From: a virus
Taxonomy: Duplodnaviria > Heunggongvirae > Uroviricota > Caudoviricetes
Virus record (IMG/VR): IMGVR_UViG_2917393062_000003
Span: 1-57,747 of that record
Direction: 5' to 3' (one strand)
DNA length: 57,747 bases
A program made the translations under genes and the position numbers. Positions 2,335 through 30,132 of this stretch are shown here, in pieces (position 1 is the stretch's first letter; the number at the start of each line of letters is the position of its first letter). Below the pieces are notes generated by a model. The model made no database searches, was not told where the DNA came from, and saw nothing but the letters and a program-made list of their open reading frames with translations.

Positions 2335-2572
2335 GAGTTAAAATCTCCTTCAGTGCATCATCATCGCCAGTATGAATTTCCGGCGCAATTCCCGTTTCAC
2401 CAGGTCCAACAAATACTGCCCGGCGATCTATCAGCCAACGTCCACGAATTTTTTGTGGTCTTGGTACGATATATCCAAGTTTTCCGTATTTCACCAGGGT
2501 AGTGTTTGTTATTGGGAGACTGAACCGTTTAGGTTTCCACTCGTCGAGCGTTATCAGGTACTGTTCGCTCAT
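2303..2572 (-). CDS. xis: excisionase-like protein
   Basis: about 89 aa directly upstream of int and overlapping it; ATG at 2572 with SD GGAGTG. Confidence 0.6.
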   Translation of the reverse strand: MSEQYLITLDEWKPKRFSLPITNTTLVKYGKLGYIVPRPQKIRGRWLIDRRAVFVGPGETGIAPEIHTGDDDALKEILTHVTEATKKQH

Positions 2573-2633
2573 GGTTATCACTCCGGAACGCGCCAGTTGC
2601 AGAATACCAACGACAACTGGCGACGGTTGAACA

Positions 2634-5114
2634 TTAAAAATCAGCCTGACTCGGGATCAGTTTTTGCCAGATTACTGAAACGTATTTCGCCTGGTGACGG
2701 GCATCATCCAGCGCATTGTGGCGCACGCCTTCAAATGGAATAACTGTTCTGGCATCGAAACCGATAGTTTTTCCCAGTTCAACGATTGTACGTACATCGC
2801 GATCGTTGTAGTAACGCCACGGGCAGGGGATGTTCAGGCGTTCGTACGAGGTTCGTAAAATAGTGTTGTCGAAAGTTGCACCATTGCCCCATACCTGAAC
2901 GAATTTTTCATCCGAGTACTCATTGATGAATTCCCGAAATTGAATAAGAGCGTCAACCAGTTTTACCTGATCAACTAAAATTGCAGATCTGGCTTCGCTG
3001 GACTGAGCAAGCCACCATTCGATGGTGGAACCATCAGGAACAGCCCCCGTGTCCATAGCGTCAACCAGGCTGATAACGATATAAAATGTTGGCCCGATTT
3101 CCCCGGTCTGCGGATCGAAGAACACAGCACCAATAACCACGATGGGGGCATTACTTTTTTTACCCATCGTTTCAAGGTCGATCATCAGGTGGTACCACAC
3201 TCTGCTGGTGGATGTGATAACGTGATGACCGTTCACCGCAATTAAGGGATCTGCTGTCTCGCCAGTTTCGCTATCGCTGGCGTGGTCCTGATAGCTGCCA
3301 GCATTCTCTTTGTGTGGATGTTCAGCGCCTTCCATTTCCTCCGGATCGTCTTCCTGAACTTCAACCTGATTCTCGTCATCGAATGTTTCCTGGTATGTTG
3401 CGTCGCCCATCACCGCGCCACAATCAGGGCAGTTGCCGCCACCGCTCTGGCCGCAGGCGGTGCAGACTTTTTCCGGCTTCTGTTGCGCTACTGGTTCAGG
3501 CTGTTTCGTTTCTGGCTCGTTTTGTTGCGCATTTGGGCTGTTTTGTTCCGCTTTCTGGTCGTTCTGTTCCGTTTCTTGCTGGTTCTGGTACACAGAATCG
3601 CGGGTCTGGATCCCATTAACCCATTTCGGATCATTCGGGTCGCTAATCCCTGCAACAAATTCACCACGTGATACTGCAAGCAGTTCATCGGCGTCAGGCT
3701 GGCTGATATTGGCTGCCTGCATAATTTTGTTTACTTCGTCAGCGGTAACTTTTACCGACTCTGGTTGTGCGATCGTGTCAGATGCACCAGTATTTTGTTG
3801 TGAACCTGAGTATGTACCGTTTTTGCGGGCAAAATATTCTTCTTTCGTGATTTCAGTAGCTCCCAAGGCCAGCGCTTTTTCCAGACCAGAAAGTTTGTTT
3901 GCGCGACCGTATTTTTCGCCGTCCTTATCGGTGAAAAGGAAGTAGAACGGCCCCTCACGCTCTACAGATGGTTCAGTTTCCAGCGTGCTTTCATTTTTTT
4001 GGGTATCAGATACTTCAGTTTCCACTGCATCAGTTTGTGCTGCTGACGGCTGGAGAATATCAGCAGTGTTCTGGTCTGTTTCTTCATCCTCAAACACGCC
4101 CTTTGTCGCCAGGTATTCAGTGATGTATTTGTTCAGTGCCACGGGATCTTTGTGAATGTCGAGCGGACGCTCACGGACAAGACCAAAAATAGTCTGACGG
4201 TTATAGCGAATGGCATCAGGCTGTTTGCGCATTGATGCGGAAATGCGCTTCCAGTCTTCGCGGTCTTTGGCGATAACTTCATTTTCTGCCCAGCGAAGGA
4301 TGTTACCGTCAATGCTTCCGGGGTCCGTATCACCAGGCCAGAGATAGCAGGCCAGCTCCCTGTCCAGCGCTTTCCATGTCTGCTTATATTCGCGACGAAT
4401 GGCATCAGTGGCAGGGTTGATTTTTTCTGCTGAATTTTCGGTGTTCTGTCGGTTGGTTCTGGCGCGGGCGAGATCAACAACAGACGTGTATTTCCCGGTT
4501 TCTTTGCGTTCGGCTTCGCGACGTTTTTTCCAGATGCGCATCTCCGCCTGAATTTCGGGCCATTTGGCACCTGGATTACATTTATGTTTAACCCACCCGA
4601 TGGCGAGCAGCTTAAGCTCTGAATACATGACGTTAACTTCAGGCATTTTCATCAGTGCCTCAACGATATGCCCGTCGAATGTTGCCATGTCCTCCTGCAA
4701 CAATTCCTGTGCACTAATCACCATATCAACGGTGATGTTTTCACATGTACCGAACTTAACCAGGACCGCGTTCTGTACTTCAAGGGACAGCTTGTCAAAA
4801 TTGACGTTCATCGGATCGGATTCTGGTTCGACCGGAATAAAGGAAGCGGATTCCTCATCCCAGCGGTTTTCCTGCATATATTCGGTATCCCAGGAGTCGA
4901 TAGCAGGGCGGGGCATGCCGGGTTTATCCTCGCAGACAAGAAATTTATAAGCGCAGTCCTGAGCAGCCGGATATTGCTCCAGGAATTGCCAGGTAAATTT
5001 GGCACGGGCGCGGCGTTCGTCACCGGCTTCAATGGCAGTGGCTACAGCAACTGCACCTTCTTCCTTTATTGCCTGTTCGTCCGGAATGGCGGCGCAAATA
5101 AAGACTTTACTCAT
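2634..5114 (-). CDS. RecE-like (exonuclease VIII family) protein with C-terminal DEDDh 3'-5' exonuclease domain
   Basis: 826 aa; central region LLAVSRGEFVAGISDPNDPKWVNGIQTRD...CTACGQSGGGNCPDCGAVMGDATYQETFD recalled from Rac RecE; C-terminus carries DEDDh motifs (MIDLETMG, WGNGATFDNTILR, HNALDDARH). Confidence 0.7.
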   Translation of the reverse strand: MSKVFICAAIPDEQAIKEEGAVAVATAIEAGDERRARAKFTWQFLEQYPAAQDCAYKFLVCEDKPGMPRPAIDSWDTEYMQENRWDEESASFIPVEPESDPMNVNFDKLSLEVQNAVLVKFGTCENITVDMVISAQELLQEDMATFDGHIVEALMKMPEVNVMYSELKLLAIGWVKHKCNPGAKWPEIQAEMRIWKKRREAERKETGKYTSVVDLARARTNRQNTENSAEKINPATDAIRREYKQTWKALDRELACYLWPGDTDPGSIDGNILRWAENEVIAKDREDWKRISASMRKQPDAIRYNRQTIFGLVRERPLDIHKDPVALNKYITEYLATKGVFEDEETDQNTADILQPSAAQTDAVETEVSDTQKNESTLETEPSVEREGPFYFLFTDKDGEKYGRANKLSGLEKALALGATEITKEEYFARKNGTYSGSQQNTGASDTIAQPESVKVTADEVNKIMQAANISQPDADELLAVSRGEFVAGISDPNDPKWVNGIQTRDSVYQNQQETEQNDQKAEQNSPNAQQNEPETKQPEPVAQQKPEKVCTACGQSGGGNCPDCGAVMGDATYQETFDDENQVEVQEDDPEEMEGAEHPHKENAGSYQDHASDSETGETADPLIAVNGHHVITSTSRVWYHLMIDLETMGKKSNAPIVVIGAVFFDPQTGEIGPTFYIVISLVDAMDTGAVPDGSTIEWWLAQSSEARSAILVDQVKLVDALIQFREFINEYSDEKFVQVWGNGATFDNTILRTSYERLNIPCPWRYYNDRDVRTIVELGKTIGFDARTVIPFEGVRHNALDDARHQAKYVSVIWQKLIPSQADF

Positions 5115-5194
5115 TTTGTTTTAACCTCATTACAGATTTAAGGGTGAACAAATCCATGCCATTGCTGGCATATAAAAATGAAACTGGATATTAA

Positions 5195-5395
5195 TTACGG
5201 CGCTGTTTTAAGTCCTGCCGGGATTTCGTTATTATCCAGGGGAATAACTTTATCGACCGGATAGCAGTTGCCGGGAATTTTCTGTTCTGCTGCGGCAGCC
5301 GTGCATTCTTTCATTGAACCATATATACCAGTAACCACATCAACCGGTTCGCCCGTATTAAGAAAAACAGTCAGGACGAGTGCAAATACTGTATT
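5195..5395 (-). CDS. small secreted/exported protein (signal peptide-like N-terminus)
   Basis: start MNTVFALVLTVFL with SD AAGGA 8 nt upstream; ATGA overlap with upstream ORF. Confidence 0.45.
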   Translation of the reverse strand, partial: NTVFALVLTVFLNTGEPVDVVTGIYGSMKECTAAAAEQKIPGNCYPVDKVIPLDNNEIPAGLKTAP

Positions 5396-5583
5396 CATTG
5401 CCAGCATCCTTTTTGTATCGGACGTAAACGTGCCAGCATTGAAAGAATGCAAATTTTATTTAATAACTCCCGTTCGTGTTTTCTCTTATTAATGGCATCT
5501 TCAGTAAATACAGGGTTACTGATTCTGACTCCAATTTCAAAACAACCTTCAGACGTATTAACGTTTGGTAATAACGTTTCCAT
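5395..5583 (-). CDS. hypothetical early-left protein
   Basis: 62 aa ORF, SD GAGGA before ATG, translationally coupled to downstream ORF. Confidence 0.4.
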   Translation of the reverse strand: METLLPNVNTSEGCFEIGVRISNPVFTEDAINKRKHERELLNKICILSMLARLRPIQKGCWQ

Positions 5584-6139
5584 TATCGCGTCCTCAACAA
5601 TGAATTTTGTGATGCGGTGCCTGGTGCCTCCAGGTGACGTTAACCAGTTAACAATTAACGCCGGAGTATTTCACGTTACGCCAGTAAAGGACCGCTTTAC
5701 TGTTTTAACTGTTCCGCGTGCGCTGAGCCGCATTCACCGCGCCACAAAATTCACTTTAAAAAGGGCGGACATCAGCCAGCAATGAAACTGATGCCGCCAA
5801 AAGGTAATCAACATGGGTTGTTGCAGCGGGGTTGTCACTCAGGCGTATGGTCAACCTGACAACCCGGCGTCCTCAACGGGGAAGGAATAACCCCGCCATA
5901 CATACCGCCGCGCCATTTCGCGGAGTGCCACAACCGGAAGCGCACAGACGAAGATGTCAGTGGTACACAACAAAGGGAGGAATGACTTCGCTGTGCGCTT
6001 TCGCGTTATGCCCTGACTTTTCAGGGATATATCCTTTCAGTAAACTGTCAGTGCCGGATGCTCACCCGTGTCCGGCGCACGCACTCCACCTGACCCGTGG
6101 AGAACTCCTTAATTACCAACCCTCAGGAGGGTGAAATTT

Positions 6140-6331
6140 ATGACACAAGAAGAAAAAGTAATGTTTCTTATGCGCCTGGCTGTGGAAACCTTTAACGCCC
6201 ATTGCCAGGTGTCCATTTCACCATCTCACGCCATTTCTCTTGCTACCGAGCAAATGGGGGAGATTGACGTCATTTACGATAAATTTGAAGCATTCCTGGA
6301 TAAGAAGCTTATGGCAGAGAAGCGTCAATAA
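6140..6331 (+). CDS. hypothetical small protein
   Basis: ATG at 6140 with strong SD AGGAGG 9 nt upstream; convergent with and overlapping 6309-6914. Confidence 0.45.
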   Translation: MTQEEKVMFLMRLAVETFNAHCQVSISPSHAISLATEQMGEIDVIYDKFEAFLDKKLMAEKRQ

Positions 6332-6914
6332 TTCTCATTACCCATCGTAAATATACCGGAGTGGGCTTGATGTTGTGTATTTCAAGCTCGCTCTTCATTA
6401 CTTCCAGCAGGTTTGAACTGATAATAAATAAATCAGATTCATCGTTATTATTTTTATCTGCATCCTCTTTTTTTGTTTTCAGCTCTTGCGGTGAATGTTC
6501 GAAAGAAACTTGCAGGGTATTATTTTTAGCATCCACAGAGCCTAAAGTATGTGCGTATGGATGTGCTATTGTGCGCCCTCGCAGATTTGCGTCATTTTCT
6601 AAATTCACTGAACAAAACAGGGCATCAACAAGGCTCTGTACAATGCAAAGGCAATCGAGGGCCGTCGCTGTTTCTGTTTTGATTGATGAAAGAACATGGC
6701 CATTCAGGCAAACAGAAATCACCCGTTCATTAACATCGCTTTCCCGCTTTTGATTATCAGAACCATATAGCCCGGTAAACGCATCGCGCACATTACGAAC
6801 CATATTATCGATGGTTTCTTTTTTTGCGGATTCCGGTTTAATTTCCACCAGGCTATCGCTAAGTGTCGTTGCAGCAATTGTCTGGATTTCTTTTGGTAAA
6901 TCTTTAAATTCCAT
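6309..6914 (-). CDS. hypothetical protein, AT-rich moron-like gene
   Basis: 201 aa; SD GAGG; 3' part encoded by markedly AT-rich DNA unlike neighbours. Confidence 0.5.
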   Translation of the reverse strand: MEFKDLPKEIQTIAATTLSDSLVEIKPESAKKETIDNMVRNVRDAFTGLYGSDNQKRESDVNERVISVCLNGHVLSSIKTETATALDCLCIVQSLVDALFCSVNLENDANLRGRTIAHPYAHTLGSVDAKNNTLQVSFEHSPQELKTKKEDADKNNNDESDLFIISSNLLEVMKSELEIHNIKPTPVYLRWVMRIIDASLP

Positions 6915-6936
6915 TATTAGCCTCGTTGGTCAGCTA

Positions 6937-7155
6937 TTAACGTGGGTATGTAATCATTCTGGCAATGCTTAATGCCGCTGCTTTTTCCAGCCTGGTGATA
7001 TCCTGCTCCAGAGCGGACAGATTTTCAGCTTGCTTAGCCCTGGCTTCATTGGCCCACTTCAGGTCCTGCGCTGCCGTAATTTTCTGGCGCATCCACTCAT
7101 AAAGTTCATCATCGGTATAGTCTGGCGCGATGATGACGGGTTCTCGTTTCTGCAT
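6937..7155 (-). CDS. hypothetical small coiled-coil protein
   Basis: 72 aa; SD GAGGAA 6 nt upstream. Confidence 0.45.
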   Translation of the reverse strand: MQKREPVIIAPDYTDDELYEWMRQKITAAQDLKWANEARAKQAENLSALEQDITRLEKAAALSIARMITYPR

Positions 7156-12396: not shown

Positions 12397-12624
12397 GTGC
12401 CTACATTATTCAGAAAAAAATATCCGCGAAAGAACAGAGCAACAGAATTCCTGTTTCTCATTCTGTTTATCGTGTTGATGATGCCGATATCCCCGTTAAT
12501 TCTGGTATGGGGAATCGGGAAAATAATTGAGCCAGTTATTGAATTGTATAACGACGTGGTATGGGCGTCGTTCAACACACTACACAATAAAATTAATCCG
12601 TATAAGGAAGACTCAAATGACTGA
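12397..12624 (+). CDS. small membrane protein
   Basis: GTG start with SD AAGGAG; hydrophobic FLFLILFIVLMMPISPLILVWGIG. Confidence 0.35.
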   Translation: MPTLFRKKYPRKNRATEFLFLILFIVLMMPISPLILVWGIGKIIEPVIELYNDVVWASFNTLHNKINPYKEDSND

Positions 12625-13321
12625 ATTAACCAAAGAACAATTAATCGAAGAAGCTAAATTAAAAATAGCGATTGCGAAATGCCACCTAAATTCAGGGATG
12701 GCACAGGTAGAGGGTGAGTTATTCAAAATTGCGCTGGCATCGCTGGAAGCAGAGCCTGTGGCGTGGAAGGCAACCTTCACGCAAATTGACAATGAATATA
12801 ATACGTTCACTGCTCTGTATTCTGACAAAGCAGAAGTCGAACGGTGGGTGCGACTGCATGAAATAGGTGACTTTCGGGCAGAAATAACACCGCTTTACGC
12901 AGCGCCGCCAGCGATGGTAGTGCCTGATGAAATGGATTTGCTTACCTGTCATCTCGACGGTGTAACTGAAACATATGCTGATGGCTGGAACGCCTGCCGC
13001 GTCGCCATGCTTCAGGCCGGAAGCTTTCGGGAAAATAAGAATTCGTCAACCAACAATTTTCGGGAAATCTCGGAAACGTCAACCAGCTCTCCGGGAACTC
13101 CGGCTGGCTGGATAAGCTGTAGTGATGCAGTTCCTGCGGAATACTGCGATGTGATTCTTCGCGATGATCTCGGGAATGTATTCCCCGGTTCCTGGGATAA
13201 GGTTTTTTGCCCCATTCGTGGCGGGAATAAGATGGCTTTTGTGGACAAAGACGGCATCGAAGTAGAGAGCTCAACTCACTGGATGCTGCTACCGGAACCA
13301 CCGCAGGAGGTGAATCAATGA
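12617..13321 (+). CDS. hypothetical phage protein (possibly DUF551-like C-terminus)
   Basis: ATG 12617 with SD AAGGAAG; C-terminal WMLLPEPP. Confidence 0.5.
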   Translation: MTELTKEQLIEEAKLKIAIAKCHLNSGMAQVEGELFKIALASLEAEPVAWKATFTQIDNEYNTFTALYSDKAEVERWVRLHEIGDFRAEITPLYAAPPAMVVPDEMDLLTCHLDGVTETYADGWNACRVAMLQAGSFRENKNSSTNNFREISETSTSSPGTPAGWISCSDAVPAEYCDVILRDDLGNVFPGSWDKVFCPIRGGNKMAFVDKDGIEVESSTHWMLLPEPPQEVNQ

Positions 13322-13401
13322 GCTGGCCTGAAGCATTCACCACGGTAGGAATCGCAATGGCGGTGGCGCTGGTGGTGTATTCGATTTGCCGCTGGGGTTG
13401 A
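13318..13401 (+). CDS. 27-aa hydrophobic peptide
   Basis: MSWPEAFTTVGIAMAVALVVYSICRWG; ATGA overlap with upstream gene. Confidence 0.25.
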   Translation: MSWPEAFTTVGIAMAVALVVYSICRWG

Positions 13402-13488
13402 CGTAATTACTAGTCCGGGGCTATATTTTCGACGCGCCAGCAAAATCTGGCGTCGGGATTGAGACCCCGGATGTTTACGGAGCGATAT

Positions 13489-13512
13489 GAGACGCGCCCG
13501 CGTCTTTTTTTT
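13489..13512 (+). terminator. rho-independent terminator ending the rightward early operon
   Basis: gagacgc-gccc-gcgtc followed by 8 T. Confidence 0.6.
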
Positions 13513-13675
13513 CATATCGTTTGCACAGTCATATTCGCGATTTATGGCGGGCTGTGTGGGGGAGCCGAAAGGCTCGCCGGTTTCCGTACCCGGTAGTCTC
13601 AACCCTGCACAGGTCGCCACCAGATGATTGAGACCAGAAGGTGGCGATAATGTCCAAATGTACGGAGTTATCGTT

Positions 13676-14221
13676 ATGACCACTCAAATTTCTGTCGAAA
13701 CTCTTTCCCCGATTACACACAACCAAATTCCCGTTATCACCACCGAGTTGCTGGCACAACTTTACGGCACGGATTCAGATAACATCAAAAAGAATTATTC
13801 GCGTAACGCAGATCGCTTTTGTGAAGGTAAGCACTTTTACAAAGTGATTGGTGATGAACTAAAGAATTTGCGGGTGACTTTAAGTCACTCACAAAATCCC
13901 ATCTCCCCAAAAACCCGCTCGCTCATACTCTGGACAGAACGCGGAGCAGCCCGCCACGCCAAAATGCTCGAAACCGATCAGGCGTGGGAAGTATTCGAAA
14001 AACTCGAAGACAGTTACTTCAACCAGTACGAGAAAGAGCGGGCTATGGGCAAAATGAATATCGATTTTCACCTGGCGATCCGTGACGATAAAACTGCTTT
14101 CATCCGAAGTTATGCGCCAGGTCAGCTGGTGACGGTTGAAGAAGCACTGACCTTGCTTAAATCGCGCGGTTGGCTGGTAATGCCGCGCGATGAACTGGCC
14201 GGAAAATTAATGGAGCTTTAA
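13676..14221 (+). CDS. ORF6N/KilA-C-like antirepressor-type protein
   Basis: start MTTQISVETLSPITHNQIPVITTELLA; about 90 percent nt identity to parts of 394-951 by eye. Confidence 0.6.
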   Translation: MTTQISVETLSPITHNQIPVITTELLAQLYGTDSDNIKKNYSRNADRFCEGKHFYKVIGDELKNLRVTLSHSQNPISPKTRSLILWTERGAARHAKMLETDQAWEVFEKLEDSYFNQYEKERAMGKMNIDFHLAIRDDKTAFIRSYAPGQLVTVEEALTLLKSRGWLVMPRDELAGKLMEL

Positions 14222-14229
14222 AGCAGATA

Positions 14230-14265
14230 CAAAAAACCCCTGCTGGTAAGGTCAGGGGTTTTTTT
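14230..14265. terminator. bidirectional rho-independent terminator
   Basis: cccctgctgg-taag-gtcagggg flanked by A-run and T-run. Confidence 0.65.
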
Positions 14266-14346
14266 GATGGTTTTCGCGAAAAGTGGTGTGAATTCGCATA
14301 TAACCACTGTTTTGTTGCTTGTACGGGCAGGCAACACTCAACAGGG
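14232..14346 (-). ncRNA. candidate antisense antitoxin sRNA of the ShoB-like locus
   Basis: minus-strand -35 TTGAAA / -10 TAATCT (forward 14350-14377); RNA would carry the complement of an 18-nt repeat also present in the toxin 5' UTR (14517-14534); ends at the bidirectional terminator. Confidence 0.3.
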
Positions 14347-14583
14347 TTAAGATTACTTAATTCTCCGCAAATTTCAAGAAATTATTAGCTTTTCCTGATA
14401 TCGCGAGTTGTGTAAAATGCAACTTGTTGAGAACGTTACTGTTATCAGAACAGGTGCTGAAACGGATTTTCCCCGGTGAAACAGGTGGTGCTGTCAGGGC
14501 TCTAACCTGGAAGATGGCAAGCAACACTCAACAGAAGCACGAATTGACTTTGGGGAAATGTAAGAGCCAGTCAATTCTGCCAC

Positions 14584-14599
14584 TTCCTTACGTAAGGAA
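14584..14599 (+). promoter_or_regulatory. perfect 16-bp palindrome sequestering the toxin Shine-Dalgarno
   Basis: TTCCTTACGTAAGGAA contains the AAGGA SD 6 nt before ATG 14605. Confidence 0.5.
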
Positions 14600-14604
14600 A
14601 ACGG

Positions 14605-14685
14605 ATGATGGACGCCCGACACCTGATTAAACAGGTAATCGAGATCATCATTGCTGTTTTACAGCTGATCCTGTTGTTCTTGTAA
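14605..14685 (+). CDS. ShoB-like type I toxin (26-aa hydrophobic peptide)
   Basis: MMDARHLIKQVIEIIIAVLQLILLFL; closely resembles recalled ShoB; long 5' UTR; not in ORF track. Confidence 0.6.
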   Translation: MMDARHLIKQVIEIIIAVLQLILLFL

Positions 14686-14932
14686 TAGCGGGAAACGTAA
14701 CTAAGGCGCGTCCAGTTTACCGACTGGCGCGCCTTTAACATATCCGGAGATTATCCGCTCAGCATTTTTTGCTTTAACAGATCAAGTTTTAGCCGATTCA
14801 GCCATTAAACCGACCTTCGTTTGTTGATAAGCGGGTATACCTGACTAGAATCGATTCACTTAAGTAGCGCGCAGGGATAAGAGGGATGGACCCTGAGAAG
14901 GGGAGAGCTATTTATCTGGAAGGATTCTGAAG

Positions 14933-15193
14933 ATGAAAATCGAAGAATTGCGTGAAATTTTTAGTGAAAATGGCCTCTATGCTGTGCGCGTTGAGAATGG
15001 ATCTATTGTCAGTTACTGCCGCATTAAATGTTTACAGTCTCAACAAAGGAAGAGTGGAGCTGTGTTAATTCATTTTGTGGACGGACTTATGACGGACGGT
15101 TTTATTTTGCGTGAAGATGAATTTGTCACATCATTACGGGGGCTGAAAGAGGCCGGGCTTAAAGCTGGCTTTTCTGCTTTTGAGGATGTGTGA
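14933..15193 (+). CDS. hypothetical protein
   Basis: 86 aa ORF with weak SD. Confidence 0.45.
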   Translation: MKIEELREIFSENGLYAVRVENGSIVSYCRIKCLQSQQRKSGAVLIHFVDGLMTDGFILREDEFVTSLRGLKEAGLKAGFSAFEDV

Positions 15194-15260
15194 ATTCAGC
15201 TACAATTCAGCACAGGGCTGAACCCCCTGTTGAGTAACACTGTGCCACCGGAGAAAGCCG

Positions 15261-15539
15261 ATGGCGCAAAATTCCAGACCACACAATTCTGATAATCTCG
15301 CCGTCCTTGCCAGCAGGCACGGGCGGCGTTCTCACGCATTCAAATATGACTGGTATCAGCACGATCCCTGCACTGAAGAACAGGCCGAATGGCTGATTCA
15401 GAACTACCGCAGACGTGGATATGAGTTTAGGAAAGCCCTCAGCCTCGATTATCTTCACTGGATAATCTACGTCAAGCTGCCGTACTCCGAGCGCCCACCG
15501 CGTCCGTCCCGCACATTCCAGCAACGGATCTGGAGGTAA
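15261..15539 (+). CDS. hypothetical protein
   Basis: 92 aa ORF with SD. Confidence 0.45.
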   Translation: MAQNSRPHNSDNLAVLASRHGRRSHAFKYDWYQHDPCTEEQAEWLIQNYRRRGYEFRKALSLDYLHWIIYVKLPYSERPPRPSRTFQQRIWR

Positions 15540-15540
15540 T

Positions 15541-16530
15541 GTGAGAGCATTACTGACACCTGAAATTGCCCCGCGTATGGGGATCGTACTGTTCAGGCCA
15601 GGTTCAGAGCTGATGCCCTTGTTTATGCAGGGGCGTGTCTTGCTGGAGCCTGAGCCGGAACGTTATTCATCTTTTGCCAGTGGTGTCGTTCCAGCGGCAT
15701 TACAACCGTTAGCGGATGATCCCGCTGTTCGGGCCGTATTCCGTAATGAGGCTGTGATCCATCGTGCTGGTGGAGTGGGATGTCTTGAAAGCTGGTTACT
15801 TCGTGAAAAAGGTTGTCAGTGGCCTCATTCCGACTGGCACAGCGAGAACATGACCACAATGCGTCACGTGCCGGGAGCAATCCGTTTGTGCTGGCACTGC
15901 GATAATCAGCTGCGCGATCAGTTCACAGAACGGTTGGAATCAATGGCAACGGATAACTGTGTTCGTTGGGTGTTGTCTGTTGTCCGTCGGGATCTCGGTT
16001 TTGATGAAAGTCACGTTGTGACAATGCCGGAACTGTGCTGGTGGCTGGTTCGTAATGACCTGGCGGATGCCTTACCTGAAAGCGCAGCCCGTAAGGCTCT
16101 GAGATTACCGAAGCCTGCTGTGCAGTCTGTCACTCGGGAAAGTGACCTCGTACCTTCAGTTCCGGCCACCAGCATCATCCAGGATAAAGCGAAAAAGGTG
16201 CTGGCGCTGAAAGTGGATCCGGAATCGCCGGAGTCTTTTATGTTACGCCCCAAACGTCGCCGCTGGGTTAACGAAAAGTACACGCGCTGGGTTAAGACAC
16301 AGCCGTGTGCATGTTGTGGTAAGCCAGCCGACGATCCCCATCACCTGATTGGTCACGGTCAGGGAGGGATGGGGACAAAAGCCCACGATATTTTCACGCT
16401 ACCGCTGTGCCGGGAGCATCACAATGAACTTCATGCTGATCCGCTGGCATTTGAAGAAAAGCATGGTTCCCAGATTGATTTAATTTTTCGTTTTCTTGAT
16501 CACGCCTTTGCAACCGGCGTGCTTGGGTAA
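15541..16530 (+). CDS. nin-region protein with C-terminal DUF968-like Cys/His motif
   Basis: 329 aa; C-terminal CACCGKPADDPHHLIGHGQGG...CREHHNELH; GTG start with SD GGAGGT. Confidence 0.55.
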   Translation: MRALLTPEIAPRMGIVLFRPGSELMPLFMQGRVLLEPEPERYSSFASGVVPAALQPLADDPAVRAVFRNEAVIHRAGGVGCLESWLLREKGCQWPHSDWHSENMTTMRHVPGAIRLCWHCDNQLRDQFTERLESMATDNCVRWVLSVVRRDLGFDESHVVTMPELCWWLVRNDLADALPESAARKALRLPKPAVQSVTRESDLVPSVPATSIIQDKAKKVLALKVDPESPESFMLRPKRRRWVNEKYTRWVKTQPCACCGKPADDPHHLIGHGQGGMGTKAHDIFTLPLCREHHNELHADPLAFEEKHGSQIDLIFRFLDHAFATGVLG

Positions 16531-16542
16531 AAGAGGTTACTG

Positions 16543-16902
16543 ATGCGTATAGAGCTTGTTTTGCCTTACCCGCCGACGGTGAACACCTACTGGCGACGTC
16601 GTGGCAGCACATATTTTGTATCAAAAGCCGGTGAGCGTTATCGTCGGGATGTGGCGCTCATTGTTCGCCAGCAGCGACTGAAATTAAACCTGTCCGGAAG
16701 GCTGGCAATAAAAATTATTGCAGAGCCACCGGATAAGCGCCGCCGAGACCTGGACAATATCCTGAAAGCTCCACTGGATGCGCTGACGCATGCGGGACTA
16801 CTCATAGACGACGAGCAGTTTGATGAAATCAATATTGTGCGTGGTCAGCTCGTTCCTGGTGGGCGGCTGGGGATAAAAATCACAGAGCTGGAGTGCGCAT
16901 GA
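16543..16902 (+). CDS. rusA: Holliday junction resolvase RusA
   Basis: 119 aa; DKRRRDLDNILKAPLDALTHAG matches RusA catalytic region. Confidence 0.85.
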   Translation: MRIELVLPYPPTVNTYWRRRGSTYFVSKAGERYRRDVALIVRQQRLKLNLSGRLAIKIIAEPPDKRRRDLDNILKAPLDALTHAGLLIDDEQFDEINIVRGQLVPGGRLGIKITELECA

Positions 16903-17588
16903 ATTACCAGTATTTACAGTTTGTTCGTGAGCAACTCATGATTGCCACCGCCGATTTGAGTGGAGCAACAAAAGGACAGCTTGAGGCCTGGCAGGAGAAT
17001 GCCATGTTTGAAACAGGGCGTTACAGGCGTAAAAAAATCCGGTACCGCGATGAAGTGACCGGAAAAATGATAACGCGGGATAATCCACCAATCCCGGGAA
17101 AACAATCGCTGGCGAAAGGTTCGTCAATTCCTCTGGTAAGTCAGGTTGAGTTTTCGACATCATCATGGCGACGGGCAGTTCTGTCTCTTGAAGAACATCA
17201 TAAAGCCTGGTTGTTGTGGTGTTACAGCGGCAGCATTTGCTGGGAACACCAGATCGCGATAACGCAGTGGGTGTGGCATGAATTTAACGCACAATCCGGT
17301 ACCAGAAAAATTGCAGGGAAAACGCTGGAGCGCCTGAAAAAATTAATCTGGCTGGCGGCACAGGATGTGAAGAGTGAGCTGGCTGGGCGTGAAACTTATG
17401 AATATCAGGAACTGGCATTACTGGCGGGAGTAACAACAAAAAACTGGTCCAAAACATTTACTGGTCACTGGGTTGCAATGAAACATATTTTCCACCGTCT
17501 GGATAGTGAGGCTTTATTGTTTGTGATGAGAACGCGTTCAGAACAAAAGGCGGCATTTTCAAAGCAAAGTGTTGCAAAAGTAGATTAA
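16899..17588 (+). CDS. putative late-gene antiterminator (Q-like), assigned mainly by position
   Basis: about 230 aa immediately after rusA and before a terminator and the lysis genes; no Cys4 zinc finger seen. Confidence 0.45.
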   Translation: MNYQYLQFVREQLMIATADLSGATKGQLEAWQENAMFETGRYRRKKIRYRDEVTGKMITRDNPPIPGKQSLAKGSSIPLVSQVEFSTSSWRRAVLSLEEHHKAWLLWCYSGSICWEHQIAITQWVWHEFNAQSGTRKIAGKTLERLKKLIWLAAQDVKSELAGRETYEYQELALLAGVTTKNWSKTFTGHWVAMKHIFHRLDSEALLFVMRTRSEQKAAFSKQSVAKVD

Positions 17589-17653
17589 AAGGCATATATT
17601 TCGTGCAAATCTGATATTTTGCCGATTTTGTACGCGATGGCAAAGTAAGCAAG

Positions 17654-17677
17654 GCCCGCCGCTGAGCGGGTTTTTTT
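17654..17677 (+). terminator. rho-independent terminator (tR'-like) downstream of Q-like gene
   Basis: gcccgc-cgctga-gcgggt followed by 7 T. Confidence 0.6.
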
Positions 17678-17890
17678 ATGTCTGAAAAACGGCACAGGGC
17701 GTTAAACACGCTGGTGGTTGCGCAGTGAGCGGTTTGAGCAGGCGGTGAGTGAGATAAGAGAAGTTCTGACATGTAAAGCCGTTGGTTGATTAATGCTTAT
17801 TTTTTTATAAGTCTTATTGCAATATATAAGTGTGGGGTGTAAAGTTATTCTCGAAATAATCATGTTTTCTCACGAATCAGAGGGGGGATA

Positions 17891-19636: not shown

Positions 19637-20179
19637 ATGACAAAAGACGAAATTTTTGATGCCGTTCTTGGTAAAGAGGGCGGTTACGTCAACCATCCGG
19701 ATGATAAAGGTGGGCCGACCAAATGGGGAATTACGGAAAAAGTCGCCCGTGCGCACGGATATCAGGGCGATATGCGTAACCTGACACGCGGGCAGGCGCT
19801 GGAAATACTCGAGGCGGATTACTGGTATGGCCCACGATTCGACCAGATTGCGAACCTGTCGCCGGATATTGCTGCAGAACTGTGCGACACGGGCGTGAAC
19901 ATGGGACCAACTGTGGCGTCCAGAATGCTTCAACGCTGGCTGAACGTTTTCAACCTGCGCGGGAAACTGTATCCGGATATGGATGCAGATGGACGCATCG
20001 GACCTCGTACCCTCAATGCGTTACGGGCATATCTGAAAAATCGTGGCAGGGATGGAGAGCTGGTAATGCTGACCGCGCTGAACTGTACGCAGGGTGACCG
20101 CTATCTGGAGCTGGCAGAGAAACGGGAGGCTAACGAGTCGTTTGTCTACGGCTGGATGAAAGAGCGTGTGGCTGTATGA
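19637..20179 (+). CDS. endolysin (GH108-type muramidase with C-terminal peptidoglycan-binding region)
   Basis: 180 aa; EGGYVNHPDDKGGPTKWGIT motif. Confidence 0.8.
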   Translation: MTKDEIFDAVLGKEGGYVNHPDDKGGPTKWGITEKVARAHGYQGDMRNLTRGQALEILEADYWYGPRFDQIANLSPDIAAELCDTGVNMGPTVASRMLQRWLNVFNLRGKLYPDMDADGRIGPRTLNALRAYLKNRGRDGELVMLTALNCTQGDRYLELAEKREANESFVYGWMKERVAV

Positions 20180-21702: not shown

Positions 21703-22185
21703 ATGTCAGGACCCCCGAAAACCCCGCCACGCCTGCATTTGATACGAGGCAACCCCTCAAAGCGCCCCGTTAAAGACCCAAAAAAAACCGCTAAAAAGGA
21801 TGAAAAAGGTCTCCCTAAAATTCCGCAACATTTAGGGTCGCAGGGGAAGTACTGGTTCAGGCGAATGGCGGAAGAACTGAATGCGGAAGGGATCATTTCT
21901 CAGCTTGATGCGCGTGCACTCGAGTTACTGGTGGAAGCCTACACCGAATACCGGCATCACTGCGAAACACTTGATGCTGAGGGTTATACCTACCGCACGG
22001 AAACGCAGAACGGTGATGTGCTGATTAAGGCACACCCGGCTGCTGCGATGAAAGCGGATGCCTGGAAGCGGATCCGGGCGATGCTTGCAGAGTTTGGTAT
22101 GTCACCGGCAAGCCGGGCGAAAGTAAATACCGCCGGATCGGATGATGTTGATCCGCTGGCGGAGCTTTTAAAAGCGAGAGACTGA
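21703..22185 (+). CDS. terminase small subunit
   Basis: 160 aa; paralogous to 36131-36487; directly upstream of terL. Confidence 0.7.
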   Translation: MSGPPKTPPRLHLIRGNPSKRPVKDPKKTAKKDEKGLPKIPQHLGSQGKYWFRRMAEELNAEGIISQLDARALELLVEAYTEYRHHCETLDAEGYTYRTETQNGDVLIKAHPAAAMKADAWKRIRAMLAEFGMSPASRAKVNTAGSDDVDPLAELLKARD

Positions 22186-23270
22186 TGGCAAAAGTGGCTG
22201 ACGGGATCCGCTACGCCGAACGTGTTGTTGCAGGAGAAATTGTCGCTGGCGAATTTGTCCGTCTGGCCTGCCAGCGTTTTCTTGATGATCTGAAGTACGG
22301 CGAAGAGCGGGGGATTTATTTCAGTGAACCCCGTGCGCAGCACATCCTGAATTTCTACAAATTTGTGCCCCATGTAAAAGGGGCGCTGGCAGGCCAGCCC
22401 ATTGAACTGATGGACTGGCATGTATTTATCCTCATTAATATTTTTGGTTTTGTCATTCCGCTGGTCAATGAAGAGACCGGGGAAGTTGTCATGCGCAGCG
22501 ATGGCAGCGGACGTCCGGTGATGGTGCGCCGGTTCCGGACGGCGTACAACGAAGTCGCCCGTAAAAACGCAAAATCAACCCTGTCATCGGGTATCGGCCT
22601 GTATATGACGGGGGCAGATGGTGAAGGCGGTGCTGAGGTGTATTCAGCCGCAACCACGCGTGACCAGGCCAGAATTGTGTTTGAAGACGCCAAAAATATG
22701 GTCAGAAAAGCCCGGTCGACACTCGGGCGGTTGTTTGATTTCAACAAGCTGGCGATTTACCAGGAGCAGAGCGCATCAAAATTTGAACCGCTTTCCTCGG
22801 ATGCAAACAACCTGGACGGTCTGAACATCCACTGCGCCATTATTGATGAGCTGCATGCTCATAAAACCCGTGACGTGTGGGACGTTCTGGAAACGGCAAC
22901 CGGTGCCCGTCTGCAGTCCCTTTTATTTGGCATCACCACGGCTGGCTTTAACAAGGAAGGGATTTGTTACGAGCAACGCGATTACGCCATCAAGGTATTG
23001 CGAGGCTATAACAGCGACGTGGAGGGCGCGGTAAAAGACGACTCCTACTTTGCAATTATTTACACGCTCGATGAGGGAGATGATCCGTTTGATGAAACGG
23101 TCTGGCAGAAAGCGAATCCCGGCCTGGGCATCTGTAAACGCTGGGATGATCTGCGTCGTCTGGCGAAAAAGGCGAAGGAGCAGGTCTCGGCACGGGTGAA
23201 TTTTTTCACGAAGAAAGTAACATCACGCCGTAACAGCAGTGCGGCCTGTCCTGATTTTTTTAGTAACTAA
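22185..23270 (+). pseudogene. terminase large subunit, N-terminal part, interrupted at about 23212 by the inserted element
   Basis: aligns with the first ~315 aa of the intact TerL at 36471-38132, then runs into 19 codons of element DNA and a stop. Confidence 0.8.
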
Positions 23271-23342
23271 ATGAAAGAAAAAGATTTTTTCTTTTTCGTC
23301 GTTTTTGTTTTTTCTGGATGGTTCTGGCTGTTTTCATCATTT

Positions 23343-23363
23343 GTGTATTGCACTGTGTATTGC
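23343..23363. repeat. 21-bp subterminal repeat (tandem TGTGTATTGC units), left copy; candidate integrase arm-type site
   Basis: GTGTATTGCACTGTGTATTGC here and GTGTATTGCGCTGTGTATTGC at 38553-38573, direct orientation. Confidence 0.5.
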
Positions 23364-23383
23364 AAAAACGGGTTATAAATCAC

Positions 23384-24607
23384 ATGGCGCTAAACAAACT
23401 GAGCGATAAAAAACTTCGTTCCCTGCTTGGGCGCAGGAGTGAGAGGCAGGAAACCATCGCTGATGGTAACGGGCTTTCGGTACGGGTCAGTAAATACGGA
23501 TGTGTTAGTTTTGTTTTCTTTTACAGACTGGCGGGAAGGGGAACCGCGCCCATCTGGCTGACACTTGGAAAATATCCTGATCTGAGTCTCAAATCAGCGA
23601 GAGAGATGCGCGATCAGTGTCGAACTTGGCTTGCGGAGGGCAGAGATCCACGGATTCAGATAAAAATTGAACGGGAAGCCACCTTGCAACCTGTTACCGT
23701 TCGTGAGGCACTTGAATACTGGCTTGATAATTATGCAATGGATAAGCGTAGGGGAGCAGAACATATCAGGCAGTGCTTTGGTAAACATATTTATCCGGTG
23801 ATTGGTCATGTACCACTTAGTGATTGCTCTATATCTATGTGGATCAAGTGTTTTGACAAAATAAAAAAAGTAGCACCTGTACAGGCCGGAGCTTTGTTGC
23901 GTATATCAAAACAGGCGCTTAAATTTTGTAGGGTAAGAAAATACGCGATTAGTCATGAAATTGATGATCTTGAGGTCTGTGATGTGGGAAAAAAGTCTGC
24001 GCGAAGAAGCAGGGTTTTAACAGATGATGAAATCAGAGATTTATGGCGAAGTATTAATACTGATTATGACAATCACGAATTATCATATGAAAACCGAATT
24101 ATTTTACGTTTCCTGGTAGTTTTTGGTTGTCGACTGTCAGAAGTATTACTGTCGTCCTGGGTAGAGTGGGATTTTGATAAGAAATTATGGCGCGTTCCCG
24201 CTGATCATAGCAAAAATGGCAGGGAAATAATCAGACCGATTCCTGATGGCATGTTTAACTGGTTAGTTACGTTAAAAAAAATAACAGGTAACAAAGAAAA
24301 TGTGATTGGGTTTGATATGCGTCAGTGTACGGCAAGCGTAACTATCGGTAAGACATGGAAAAGGATGAAACACTCGGAGAAATGGACGGCGCATGATATG
24401 CGAAGAGTGTTTGCCACAAAACTAAGTGATCATGGTTTTGAACATAATGTGGTTGAACAGTTGCTTGGGCACACATTAGGCGGTGTTGCCGGGGTTTATA
24501 ACAGAAGCCAGTATATGGACAGAAAAAAAGAAGCTATGAACTGGTGGTACGACTATCTGAATAAGCAAATTAGTGGTGACAGTAATGATTCAAATAGTTA
24601 CGCGTGA
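23384..24607 (+). CDS. P4-like tyrosine integrase (N-terminal arm-binding-type domain)
   Basis: about 408 aa from MALNKLSDKKLRSL; catalytic motifs RLSEV, HDMRRVFAT, GGVAGVYNRSQY. Confidence 0.85.
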   Translation: MALNKLSDKKLRSLLGRRSERQETIADGNGLSVRVSKYGCVSFVFFYRLAGRGTAPIWLTLGKYPDLSLKSAREMRDQCRTWLAEGRDPRIQIKIEREATLQPVTVREALEYWLDNYAMDKRRGAEHIRQCFGKHIYPVIGHVPLSDCSISMWIKCFDKIKKVAPVQAGALLRISKQALKFCRVRKYAISHEIDDLEVCDVGKKSARRSRVLTDDEIRDLWRSINTDYDNHELSYENRIILRFLVVFGCRLSEVLLSSWVEWDFDKKLWRVPADHSKNGREIIRPIPDGMFNWLVTLKKITGNKENVIGFDMRQCTASVTIGKTWKRMKHSEKWTAHDMRRVFATKLSDHGFEHNVVEQLLGHTLGGVAGVYNRSQYMDRKKEAMNWWYDYLNKQISGDSNDSNSYA

Positions 24608-24806
24608 AGAACTTGAAAATGATAAAACAATCGACAGGATGATTAAGGAAGATGAATGTGCATGGTTAACAGCTCTTGGCAGGAGACACAGAGCATTACT
24701 TGAAAAGGAAGGAAAATTTCCACGTAAAATATGTATTGGCCCACAAACAAAAGTCTGGCGCTTATCTGAGGTGCTGGAATGGGTAAAGGGTGAATGGAAA
24801 CCCTGA
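24585..24806 (+). CDS. AlpA-family regulator
   Basis: EGKFPRKICIGPQTKVWRLSEVLEWV pattern; start ambiguous (24573, 24585 or 24639). Confidence 0.6.
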   Translation: MIQIVTREELENDKTIDRMIKEDECAWLTALGRRHRALLEKEGKFPRKICIGPQTKVWRLSEVLEWVKGEWKP

Positions 24807-24830
24807 ACTAAATTAAATGAGATATAATCA

Positions 24831-24855
24831 ACCCGTCTTTTGGCGGGTTTTTTTA
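24831..24855 (+). terminator. intrinsic terminator-like hairpin abutting the second alpA-like gene
   Basis: acccgtc-tttt-ggcgggt followed by 7 T. Confidence 0.4.
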
Positions 24856-24869
24856 TAGGTGATATTTTT

Positions 24870-25148
24870 ATGCAAAAATTTATTTATCCTACACCCGAAG
24901 AACGCATTCAGATTCTGAAAGATCATGGCGAACCGTATGATCGCCGTATACGCGAACATGAGTGTGCCAATCGTACCGGGCTTTCAAGAAGCAGACGTTG
25001 GGTACTTGAACAGGAGGGAGCATTTCCTGCTCGTGCTCATTTAGGGAAAGTGTCTGTTTCCTGGTTGCTCTCTGATGTGCTCTGGTGGGTTATGCATCCG
25101 CCAGGAGTAAAGGAAGTAAACAGCCCATACAAAAACGCCAATAAGTAA
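24870..25148 (+). CDS. second AlpA-family regulator
   Basis: EQEGAFPARAHLGKVSVSWLLSDVLWWV pattern. Confidence 0.6.
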   Translation: MQKFIYPTPEERIQILKDHGEPYDRRIREHECANRTGLSRSRRWVLEQEGAFPARAHLGKVSVSWLLSDVLWWVMHPPGVKEVNSPYKNANK

Positions 25149-25158
25149 TTACCGACAA

Positions 25159-25186
25159 CCCCGCACCACGCAATGCGGGGTTTTTT
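25159..25186 (+). terminator. rho-independent terminator
   Basis: ccccgca-ccacgcaa-tgcgggg followed by 6 T. Confidence 0.65.
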
Positions 25187-25205
25187 GTATGTGAGGTAGA
25201 AAGTG

Positions 25206-25799
25206 ATGAATAAAAATATTGCCGCGACGGGCAAGGGTGACGCACGTCATATGAAAAAATTCTGTGATATTCGTGATCTGGTCGTTCTGCGCTTTGATAG
25301 TGTGAACGTTCGCGTGGTGTATCTGAACGGCGATCCGTGGTTTGTTGGCGCTGATGTGTGTGCGGCGCTGGAAATTAGCAACGTTACCGATGCTGTTTCA
25401 GTTCTGGATAGCGATGAGGTAATGACCCTAGCTTTAACCGAGGGTCATTCAGGTAAGCGTGGTGGTGCCAGAAGTTGGAATGTTGTATCAGAATCAGGTT
25501 TTTACAAGTTGATCGCCAGAAGTCGCAAAGCTGTTAATCCTAGCACGTTCGCCCATCGTTTCAGTAATTGGGTATTCAGAAATGTGATACCGGGTATCAG
25601 AAAAACGGGGGCTTATGGTATCCCGTGGGGCGCATTACAGGATTTTTCCCGCCGCAAAGAGCAATACCAGATAAGTGCCAGCGAGAAGGGGAGGGAGCTA
25701 CAGGCATGTAAGCGCAAAAAGCGTGAGCTGGAGGAAGAAGAAAAAAGGCTGATACGTGAATACCAGCCTGAGTTTTACTTTGGTGAGCGTATTCAGTAA
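25206..25799 (+). CDS. Bro-N domain protein (antirepressor-like)
   Basis: N-terminal Bro-N pattern FVGADVCAALEISNVTDAVS...FYKLIARS...FAHRFSNWV. Confidence 0.7.
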   Translation: MNKNIAATGKGDARHMKKFCDIRDLVVLRFDSVNVRVVYLNGDPWFVGADVCAALEISNVTDAVSVLDSDEVMTLALTEGHSGKRGGARSWNVVSESGFYKLIARSRKAVNPSTFAHRFSNWVFRNVIPGIRKTGAYGIPWGALQDFSRRKEQYQISASEKGRELQACKRKKRELEEEEKRLIREYQPEFYFGERIQ

Positions 25800-26449
25800 C
25801 CACACGCGGTGTTGATTATACGGTACATCGTGTTGACCGGGAAGCTACCCACCAGCAAGGCAAAATCTTCTGCTAAAAAATGACATATGACCAGTCGTCC
25901 GGAAAGCATGAAATTTTACAAAAATGGAAAATGAAGATTTTTATTGTGCTGGTGGGTAAAAACAAAAAGCGCCCCGTTACCGGAGCGCCATTGCGAACAA
26001 TTAACCTACTGCGCAAAAAATGAATCTGTGCGGGGGGATTATATCAACCGTGGTCGAAATGACCATAGTTGCAGGATAACAGGCAAAACAAAGGCCACCC
26101 GCTACGGTGGCCCCTCGACACAAGCTACACGTTATCCCCAACGCATGAGCATAACCAACAATGCCACATTTACGGCTGGTGGGCAAATCCTGAGCTGTTC
26201 TGTAATTACAGGAACTACGGCATTGTCGCGGTTAGGTTATGCTCAACTTTTTTTCAACTCTATATCGCAAGCACGCCGTAATATATCGCCTTCATTGCTT
26301 CCGCAAAGATTCTTTTTCTCGAAGCATGATTTTAAGATAAAGGCGGCGACAATTAGAACAATCGCACAGAGTGCACAATTTTTAAGTTTTGGCATCTTTT
26401 ACTCCTATGGTTGCCGCCGTGATTCCTCACACCACGGCGCTGATAGTAA

Positions 26450-26629
26450 TTATTCTGATTCTTTGGCCTTGCGGCGCTGGCGGCGTTTGATCTCGCCACG
26501 CATGGCTGTAACGATAAACTGCGCGTCTGTTTCGTTTTCCTCTTTGACCAAATTCATTTCGCTTAAAACTTCTAGAGGGATTCTAGCCGTTTTTTGTTGT
26601 GATTTGTTGTTGGTTGTACCCGTTGGCAT
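26450..26629 (-). CDS. small regulator, possibly ribbon-helix-helix type
   Basis: 59 aa from MPTGTTNNK; very strong SD AAGGAGG; divergent from the rightward operon. Confidence 0.45.
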   Translation of the reverse strand: MPTGTTNNKSQQKTARIPLEVLSEMNLVKEENETDAQFIVTAMRGEIKRRQRRKAKESE

Positions 26630-26691
26630 TACTAGCCTCCTTACTGTTAGGTGGCGTTCAGTATACGTAGAAAAAAAAAATAAAAAAAAGC

Positions 26692-26742
26692 TTGAAGTGC
26701 AAGTCACCTAAAAGTAGCATAATCCTCAAAGGTGACTTGCAC
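26692..26742 (+). promoter_or_regulatory. rightward promoter bracketed by a perfect 13-bp inverted repeat (operator)
   Basis: -35 TTGAAG, 17-nt spacer, -10 TAGCAT; inverted repeat GTGCAAGTCACCT (26697-26709) / AGGTGACTTGCAC (26730-26742); upstream A-tract. Confidence 0.5.
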
Positions 26743-26823
26743 CTTAAAGACAAAGCCCCGCAAGTGTCGTTACCACTCACAGGGCTTCTAACCACCAACG
26801 ATAACGAGAGTATCGAGGTAGCT

Positions 26824-30111: not shown

Positions 30112-30132
30112 CCCCTGTGTGAGGTGAAAAGT

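Follow-up and report, generated by a model that had tools for sequence, protein, structure and literature searches.

The window, by which we mean the whole stretch of 57,747 nt analysed here, carries at positions 14222–14764 a cassette (moron) of 543 bp that lies between the stop codon of an antirepressor gene and the promoter region of rem. The cassette is situated in the early/nin region of a lambda-like (lambdoid) prophage, in which an integrase (1216–2334), a P-like loader and the antirepressor (13628–14221) are followed by the cassette and rem (14933–15193), with DUF968/HNH, RusA, Q and endolysin (19637–20179) genes downstream of rem; the presence of antirepressor, RusA, Q, endolysin and integrase bears out the prophage setting assumed in the first-pass annotation. 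The prophage looks composite or interrupted, with a TerL fragment followed by another integrase. Homology of the flanks to prophages carrying hokD or hok ends after the ant stop codon (14221) and resumes at ~14765, which defines a cassette swap of 543 bp. E. coli prophages with the same flanks hold hokD in the slot between antirepressor and rem, and one metagenome contig holds a HOK_GEF gene. On the source contig, PDHZ01000026.1 (GCA_004745115.1), a second prophage carries a near-identical cassette: the two copies are ~99% identical (6 differences in ~640 nt), compared with only 91.6% overall identity for the 2,252-nt aligned block that contains the cassette. The neighbouring potC/potD genes are 97.5–97.8% identical to those of E. 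coli, with 0 of 5,425 records reaching 99%; accordingly, the host is a close relative of E. coli within Escherichia and possibly lies outside the main E. coli groups.

The coding part of the cassette is a plus-strand ORF for a 26-aa peptide, MMDARHLIKQVIEIIIAVLQLILLFL (14605–14685), which was also predicted by the gene caller in the source assembly. The first-pass annotation had likened this hydrophobic ORF to ShoB and had named an alignment to ShoB as a check; the resemblance is borne out by the BLASTP comparison with the K-12 peptide, which gave significant similarity with 21/26 identical residues (81%) and 24/26 positives (E 6e-13). Residues 14–26 (IIIAVLQLILLFL), that is, all of the C-terminal 13 residues, are identical to those of K-12 ShoB, and the codons of this half differ between window and K-12 by three synonymous and no non-synonymous changes; among the relatives described below, codon differences in the C-terminal half of the ORF are mostly synonymous as well. 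The C-terminal part has been reported to be the portion of ShoB required for killing (PMC12022103). At the nucleotide level, a megablast search matched window positions 14549–14738 to annotated shoB in 4,317 of 5,426 complete E. coli genomes at ~79–80% identity, with no full-length match to the locus in any of them. NCBIfam and Pfam scans of the peptide returned no match, HOK_GEF included; they are uninformative as to a ShoB family because K-12 ShoB itself has no model and is likewise without a match. As judged from these alignments, the peptide is a ShoB-type membrane peptide and a predicted toxin.

The full-length toxin mRNA is predicted to comprise ~318 nt (14425–14742, plus strand) with a 5'UTR of ~180 nt, its start inferred from the -10 hexamer and its end from a conserved 3' hairpin. 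The -10, TAAAAT (14413–14418, plus strand), aligns with that of K-12 shoB, for which the same hexamer has been reported (PMC11264685), and is accompanied by a weak -35; a convincing -35 is absent and the consensus scan found no match for the toxin promoter. The predicted mRNA folds better than all of its shuffles (z = -3.31). Its first nucleotides (14425–14448) form a putative self-lock with the sRNA target site, as suggested by MFE pairing and co-variation: UGUUGAG (14425–14431) pairs with CUCAACA (14526–14532), and 14435–14446 pairs with 14513–14525. Further downstream follow a conserved 5'UTR core, CCCCGGTGAAACAGGTGGTGCTGTCAGGGCT (14471–14501), that forms a conserved hairpin and includes the motif CCCCnnTGAAACnnGTGGTGnnGTCAnnGCT, invariant in K-12 and all phage-type loci, and a conserved stem-loop between target site and SD (14537–14580; RNAalifold helix columns 129–167) that is present in the MFE structure of the window mRNA and shows many changes on both sides of the helix among relatives. 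The SD AAGGA (14594–14598), 6 nt upstream of the ATG, is sequestered in a hairpin formed by the palindrome TTCCTTACGTAAGGAA (14584–14599), with a predicted probability of being unpaired of 0.14; the hairpin is kept among relatives, CCTT/AAGG having changed to CCTC/GAGG in loci L005 and L014. The terminator-like 3' hairpin (14703–14735, plus strand), with a short U tract, is conserved in K-12 and all relatives and shows compensatory changes across the latter; the consensus scan did not mark it as a terminator. Taken over 11 mRNAs, the RNAalifold consensus structure of the family has 77 pairs, 35 of which show compensatory changes, the SD hairpin included.

Divergent from the toxin gene, an OhsC-like antitoxin sRNA of ~111 nt is predicted on the minus strand (14232–14342), with its 5' end set by comparison with the homologous K-12 RNA: the first nucleotide of OhsC is the G of GUUGAGG, which lies 7 nt past the -10, and the window has GUUGAGU (start 14342) at K-12-like spacing from TAATCT. 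The sRNA promoter (14350–14377, minus strand), as read from the sequence, consists of a -35 TTGAAA (14377–14372), a 16-nt spacer and a -10 TAATCT (14355–14350), matching the consensus hexamers at 8/12 positions; -35/-10-like hexamers are conserved in position in 9/9 phage-type loci while the intervening sequence varies. A hairpin at 14231–14264, whose inverted-repeat arms (AAAAAACCCCTG/CAGGGGTTTTTT) match perfectly over 12 bp and are flanked by runs of A and T, is predicted to be a bidirectional terminator that ends the sRNA on the minus strand and ant transcription on the plus strand. Its alignment with the terminator of K-12 OhsC extends to the loop CTGGTAAGG, and the stem shows compensatory changes across relatives. 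The predicted sRNA, too, folds better than all shuffles (z = -4.15). None of the four locus signals was flagged by the consensus promoter/terminator scan (0/4), the sRNA promoter because its -10 is a poor match, the sRNA terminator because its loop of 10 nt exceeds the limit of the scan.

The sRNA and the 5'UTR are connected by a 19-nt direct repeat, GGCAGGCAACACTCAACAG at 14326–14344 and GGCAAGCAACACTCAACAG at 14516–14534, with 18/19 identical positions and an exact core of 14 nt; with ≤3 mismatches allowed, the 57.7-kb window contains no further copy, and 100 shuffles produced none. The upstream copy is the predicted sRNA seed (minus strand), the complement of which would pair with the downstream copy, the predicted target site on the plus strand at a position homologous to the OhsC target of K-12. 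Owing to an A.C mismatch, the predicted sRNA/target duplex, at -32.6 kcal/mol, is weaker than all others in the comparison of related loci given below. With these results, most of what the first-pass annotation had put forward for the locus holds. The minus-strand promoter TTGAAA/TAATCT was found as stated and is conserved in position in the nine phage-borne relatives, the SD does lie in a perfect 16-bp palindrome, the hairpin of the predicted bidirectional terminator is present and homologous to that of K-12 OhsC, and the proposed layout of a divergent sRNA with short target complementarity agrees with the repeat occupying the positions of the K-12 OhsC 5' end and its target. Some details needed amendment: the repeat, given as 18 nt (14327–14344/14517–14534), is real but has 19 nt, starts at 14326 and 14516 and includes one mismatch; the RNA sizes (~100 nt for the sRNA, ~280 nt for the mRNA) differ somewhat from our predictions of ~111 and ~318 nt; and the locus, delimited as 14232–14700, is real but extends further, to the conserved 3' hairpin.

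The closest characterized counterpart is shoB-ohsC of E. coli K-12 (ShoB b4687, OhsC b4608), which is located between acpS and yfhL, whereas the window copy resides in a prophage. In K-12, the 79-nt ohsC gene is divergent and upstream of shoB, and this locus can be aligned with that of the window from end to end, through sRNA terminator, 5'UTR core, SD hairpin, ORF and 3' hairpin. In both loci the sRNA gene precedes the toxin gene, divergent from it and without overlap, and the 5' end of the sRNA is complementary to a site ~70–90 nt upstream of the SD; they also share the toxin -10 hexamer, the UTR core, the SD and 3' hairpins and the loop of the sRNA terminator. The 19-nt repeat of K-12, GTGCAGCATGCACCCTCAA, represents the 5' end of OhsC and its target in the shoB 5'UTR (PMC3919570); the window seed and target occupy equivalent positions but are unrelated in sequence to those of K-12 (GGCAAGCAACACUCAACAG versus GUGCAGCAUGCACCCUCAA). 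Further differences are the length of the sRNA (~111 nt with an extra internal hairpin versus 79 nt for OhsC), the one mismatch (A.C) in the sRNA/target duplex that K-12 does not have, and the distance between the genes, the sRNA gene of the window being ~60 nt closer to the toxin gene. Predicted cross-pairing between window and K-12 RNAs is weak, at -19 to -21 kcal/mol compared with -33 to -43 kcal/mol for cognate pairs, from which we predict the prophage-borne and the chromosomal system to be orthogonal. The Rfam model ohsC_RNA (RF02495) matched window positions 14231–14304 (minus strand) with 20.6 bits (E 0.34), compared with 106.8 bits for K-12 OhsC, and an Rfam scan over 3 kb of the window gave no ohsC_RNA match at E ≤ 1; as 20.6 bits are below the gathering threshold of 50 bits, the window sRNA falls outside ohsC_RNA by the Rfam criterion. 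By position, architecture and terminator homology, the predicted sRNA is nevertheless the counterpart of OhsC. In K-12, OhsC represses ShoB, and ShoB depolarises the membrane; the shoB mRNA exists as a full-length form of ~320 nt and a processed form of ~280 nt, the latter alone being active (PMC5668327, PMC5066626).

Pattern scans identified phage-type relatives on IMG/VR contigs and one metagenome contig (L004–L006 and L013–L018), the metagenome scan contributing this single contig, of the L005 type. Six of them (L004–L006, L014–L016) encode peptides of 26 aa that resemble ShoB, such as MMETRHLLKQIIEIIIAVLQLILLFL and MTDYRHLIKQVIKIVIAVLQLILLLL; the L017 peptide is a 28-aa variant and that of L013 is much more diverged. 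In other phage backbones, the cassette is found between a Rha gene and tail-fibre genes, ahead of ninB, or near polymerase genes; L016 shows ~80% identity to Escherichia phages and L017 ~80% to Klebsiella phages, small fractions being covered in either case. Each locus has its own repeat, with 8 distinct seed sequences in 10 related loci that are matched within the locus. One repeat copy lies 41–47 nt after the UTR core and the other ~141–147 nt upstream of it (207 nt upstream in chromosomal loci). Differences between the two copies of a locus are mostly transitions compatible with G.U pairing, that of the window itself being the A.C mismatch. Cognate sRNA/target duplexes average -40.4 kcal/mol versus -19.4 for non-cognate ones, and none of the other permutations, out of 40,320 for the 8 seed types from the 10 loci, scores as well as the cognate assignment. 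Likewise, the first ~30 nt of each mRNA are complementary to the mRNA's own target site, the cognate score being reached by 4 of 40,320 permutations. Across the 8 seed types, a change of the sRNA seed is accompanied by changes of the UTR target and of the mRNA 5' end.

Several other type I systems bear comparison with the window locus. The zorO-orzO/zorP-orzP pairs of E. coli O157:H7 resemble it in their divergent genes, in the small size and hydrophobicity of the peptide and in the length of the 5'UTR; they employ an 18-nt seed at the sRNA 5' end, the seeds are paralogue-specific, and specificity is sensitive to mismatches (PMC3919570). However, the ZorO peptide and UTR could not be aligned with those of the window, and the window sRNA scored 22.4 bits with the Rfam model OrzO-P, far below its gathering score of 60, this match arising from a very similar terminator hairpin with the loop CCUUACCAG; membership in zor/orz was therefore rejected. 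Both weak Rfam matches of the window sRNA, to ohsC_RNA and OrzO-P, are in fact driven by the shared terminator hairpin. A two-layer control has been described for type I systems in which the primary transcript is inert, being locked by its 5' end, and is activated by 5' processing, with the sRNA binding far upstream of the SD (PMC5668327, PMC5066626, PMC7708055); the model of the inert primary transcript has been proposed for shoB, dinQ, tisB and zorO (PMC5066626, PMC5668327). Complementarity between 5' end and target is of the same kind in systems with two-layer control and in the window, although a comparison system of this type is without sequence homology to the window locus. The hokD (relF) cassette of Qin-like lambdoid prophages, a type I toxin moron, occupies the identical slot between ORF6N antirepressor and rem in the same orientation, but belongs to an unrelated family (HOK_GEF, ~51 aa) with overlapping antisense regulation; as the window peptide has no HOK_GEF match, assignment to hok/sok was dismissed. 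Finally, ralR-ralA of the rac prophage is likewise a type I pair carried by a prophage, and its sRNA acts in trans through a short complementarity, in this case 16 nt (PMC4041452), but the toxin is a DNase rather than a membrane peptide and there is no homology to the window.

With respect to distribution, the two halves of the locus differ: the toxin half matched 5,423 places in 5,421 E. coli genomes, which amounts to practically one chromosomal copy per genome, while the sRNA half had zero matches in complete E. coli genomes. Searches of 5,426 complete E. coli genomes, of 50,697 phage records and of the genomes of 100,044 species representatives did not find the variant of the window; the species representatives yielded only three loci, all of them chromosomal and from Escherichia. 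Plasmid-borne copies were discarded, since the only plasmid matches proved to be mislabelled chromosomes. These counts may be set beside the published view that ShoB is confined to E. coli and Shigella as a single-copy gene, with surveys of shoB-ohsC reporting no plasmid copies and leaving phage copies unmentioned (PMC2887945, PMC11264685, PMC8594479); of type I systems in general, it has been said that they do not readily spread by horizontal transfer (PMC2887945). The pairing requirements of shoB-ohsC were still listed as not yet established in a 2024 survey. While the shoB-ohsC system as such is known, the new elements are a mobile, prophage-borne member with its own seed, a longer predicted sRNA and the moron setting.

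Taken together, the cassette at 14222–14764 is a diverged, self-contained and seemingly intact copy of the shoB-ohsC pair, and we consider it highly probable that it is of the ShoB/OhsC type and works by sRNA-UTR pairing, a mechanism deduced from homology and co-variation. According to this model, the weak promoter with the -10 TAAAAT would give rise to an mRNA of ~318 nt that is translationally inert as a primary transcript, its SD being enclosed in a hairpin and its own 5' end pairing with the sRNA target region. Processing at the 5' end may then open the mRNA, by analogy with K-12 shoB, tisB, zorO and dinQ. We have less confidence in this activation step, for which the analogy is our basis: in silico removal of the first 41 nt raised the probability of the target being unpaired only from 0.32 to 0.41 and did not open the SD, and the processing step is therefore unsupported by folding alone. 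The minus-strand sRNA (~111 nt), presumed to be constitutive, would pair by its 5' end with 14516–14534, forming 12–14 contiguous bp, the A.C mismatch and then another 4 bp, and would thereby block ribosome loading or trigger cleavage, such that no peptide is made. If the sRNA were lost or outpaced, the peptide would be expected to enter the inner membrane and depolarise it, as K-12 ShoB does. The cassette might then act like the hokD cassette it replaces, in prophage stabilisation or on the host under stress or infection. That the biological role is the same as that of hokD is likely, but it is the least certain step of the scheme, and the second near-identical cassette in the host weakens a simple addiction role.

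The conserved signals also bear on whether the cassette may be a silent or decaying relic, homologous to shoB-ohsC but unexpressed or non-toxic and passively carried along, which we regard as improbable. Its promoter matches are indeed weak and escaped the consensus scan, the seed duplex contains the A.C mismatch, and the prophage is composite or interrupted (TerL fragment, then another integrase), all of which would fit decay. Yet the ORF is intact, with synonymous changes alone relative to ShoB in its C-terminal half; SD hairpin, UTR core and 3' hairpin have been kept with compensatory changes; and seed, target and mRNA 5' end still match one another. Moreover, the two copies on the contig are ~99% identical in an enclosing 2,252-nt block of 91.6% identity, which likewise speaks against a relic. 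Even further from our expectation, to the point that we give it hardly any credence, is the idea that the direct repeat acts at the DNA level, as an operator pair or a recombination site, and not through RNA-RNA pairing. Direct repeats can serve as protein-binding sites, and CpxR sites have been proposed in the K-12 intergenic region (PMC11264685); but the repeat sequence is wholly different between relatives and yet matched inside each locus, the 543-bp cassette encodes no locus-specific DNA-binding protein, and where the two copies of a locus differ, the change is mostly a transition that still allows G.U pairing between the RNAs. In addition, the upstream copy comes directly behind a conserved promoter and forms the 5' end of the counterpart of a known sRNA.

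If pairing of sRNA and UTR is accepted as the mechanism, the role of the cassette could still differ from prophage stabilisation, its main effect being abortive infection or superinfection exclusion, or a contribution to membrane damage during lysis. We deem such a role possible but, on balance, the less probable one. It is a moron of the nin region with its own signals and is interchangeable with hokD, and the strong diversification of seeds between phage backbones would suit a part in conflicts between phages or with the host; the second copy in the host, having an identical seed, would cancel simple addiction, and type I systems have been linked to phage tolerance (PMC11264685). The lysis variant is disfavoured by the location of the cassette outside the lysis module, the endolysin being encoded at 19637–20179. 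A broader and more tentative idea, which we hold with similarly limited confidence, is that phage-borne shoB/ohsC cassettes constitute an unrecognised mobile clade in which the triplet of seed, target and lock diversifies like immunity specificities and which is exchangeable with hok at a fixed moron slot, the chromosomal shoB-ohsC being perhaps a domesticated phage moron.

In the window and about nine viral or metagenome contigs, the system occurs with at least 8 seed specificities and on several phage backbones, and these phage-borne loci show that the shoB-ohsC family is mobile. Their natural co-variation supports both the still unvalidated pairing of OhsC with shoB and the idea that the shoB mRNA locks itself by its 5' end. 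The finding also raises the questions of cross-talk between prophage and chromosomal copies, predicted here to be orthogonal, and of the use of a membrane-depolarising toxin to a prophage in a slot otherwise held by hokD. Should the seed/target/lock triplet truly diversify like immunity specificities, then each phage's antitoxin would neutralise its own toxin alone, and a mobile phage clade of this kind would contradict the view that such type I systems do not move horizontally.

In prophages related to that of the window, the interval that separates the ORF6N antirepressor gene from rem, and that here (14222–14764) holds the shoB-ohsC-like toxin/antisense-RNA cassette, is filled by a hokD or HOK_GEF gene (positions 1122–1900 of L022 and about 1950–2332 of L021). 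From the sequences compared, this interval appears to serve as a moron slot of fixed position, able to take various type I toxin cassettes. The best sigma-70-like site of the region (TTGATA/16 nt/TAGAAT, 10/12; 14824–14851, plus strand) directly follows the cassette and precedes rem, and it is kept in the hok-slot relative L021. Immediately 5' of the antirepressor gene (ant), three Rfam matches were found within 13421–13624, namely isrK (13434–13510; 71.5 bits), C4 antisense RNA (13540–13624; 71.7 bits) and the c4-a1b1 target element (13421–13473); the group looks like an antisense-RNA control module for ant, of the P1/P7 or Gifsy type.

The minus strand at 14232–14314, within the predicted OhsC-like antitoxin sRNA, gave a sub-threshold match to the Rfam family of OrzO-P antitoxins (22.4 bits, E 0.086), the sRNAs of the zorO-orzO and zorP-orzP loci of E. 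coli O157:H7. The terminator hairpin loop CCUUACCAG is common to OhsC, OrzO-P and the window sRNA, a hint that these antitoxin sRNAs derive their 3' modules from a common ancestor.

Farther downstream in the window, a truncated terminase large-subunit ORF (22185–23270) is followed by an integrase (23318–24607), a DNA primase (27988–30111), a major head protein (32139–33284), a portal (33806–35110) and, after the latter, a complete terminase (36471–38132); a second portal (39579–40820) then precedes tail sheath and tape measure genes. In this part of the window (22185–38132), a second integrase-bearing element, be it a capsid-encoding satellite or another prophage, seems to have inserted into the lambdoid prophage or to abut it. 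On the host side, past the window start, the prophage is adjoined by potC/potD (source-contig stretch L011, 5700–7119). As these genes are 97.5–97.8% identical to those of every E. coli genome compared, with none at 99% identity, the host may belong to a divergent Escherichia lineage rather than to typical E. coli.

The source contig PDHZ01000026.1 carries a further copy of the cassette in a second prophage region (L020, record 1736–6996), which has the gene order ant/shoB-like/rem/DUF968/RusA/Q in common with window 12433–17693. The two cassette copies differ at only ~6 of 640 positions, whereas the 2,252-nt aligned block enclosing the cassette is only 91.6% identical, a disparity that suggests recent exchange or homogenization of the cassette. 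The seed, the 5' part of the sRNA predicted to pair with the toxin 5' UTR, is identical in both copies, so that the two predicted sRNAs should be mutually cross-protective.
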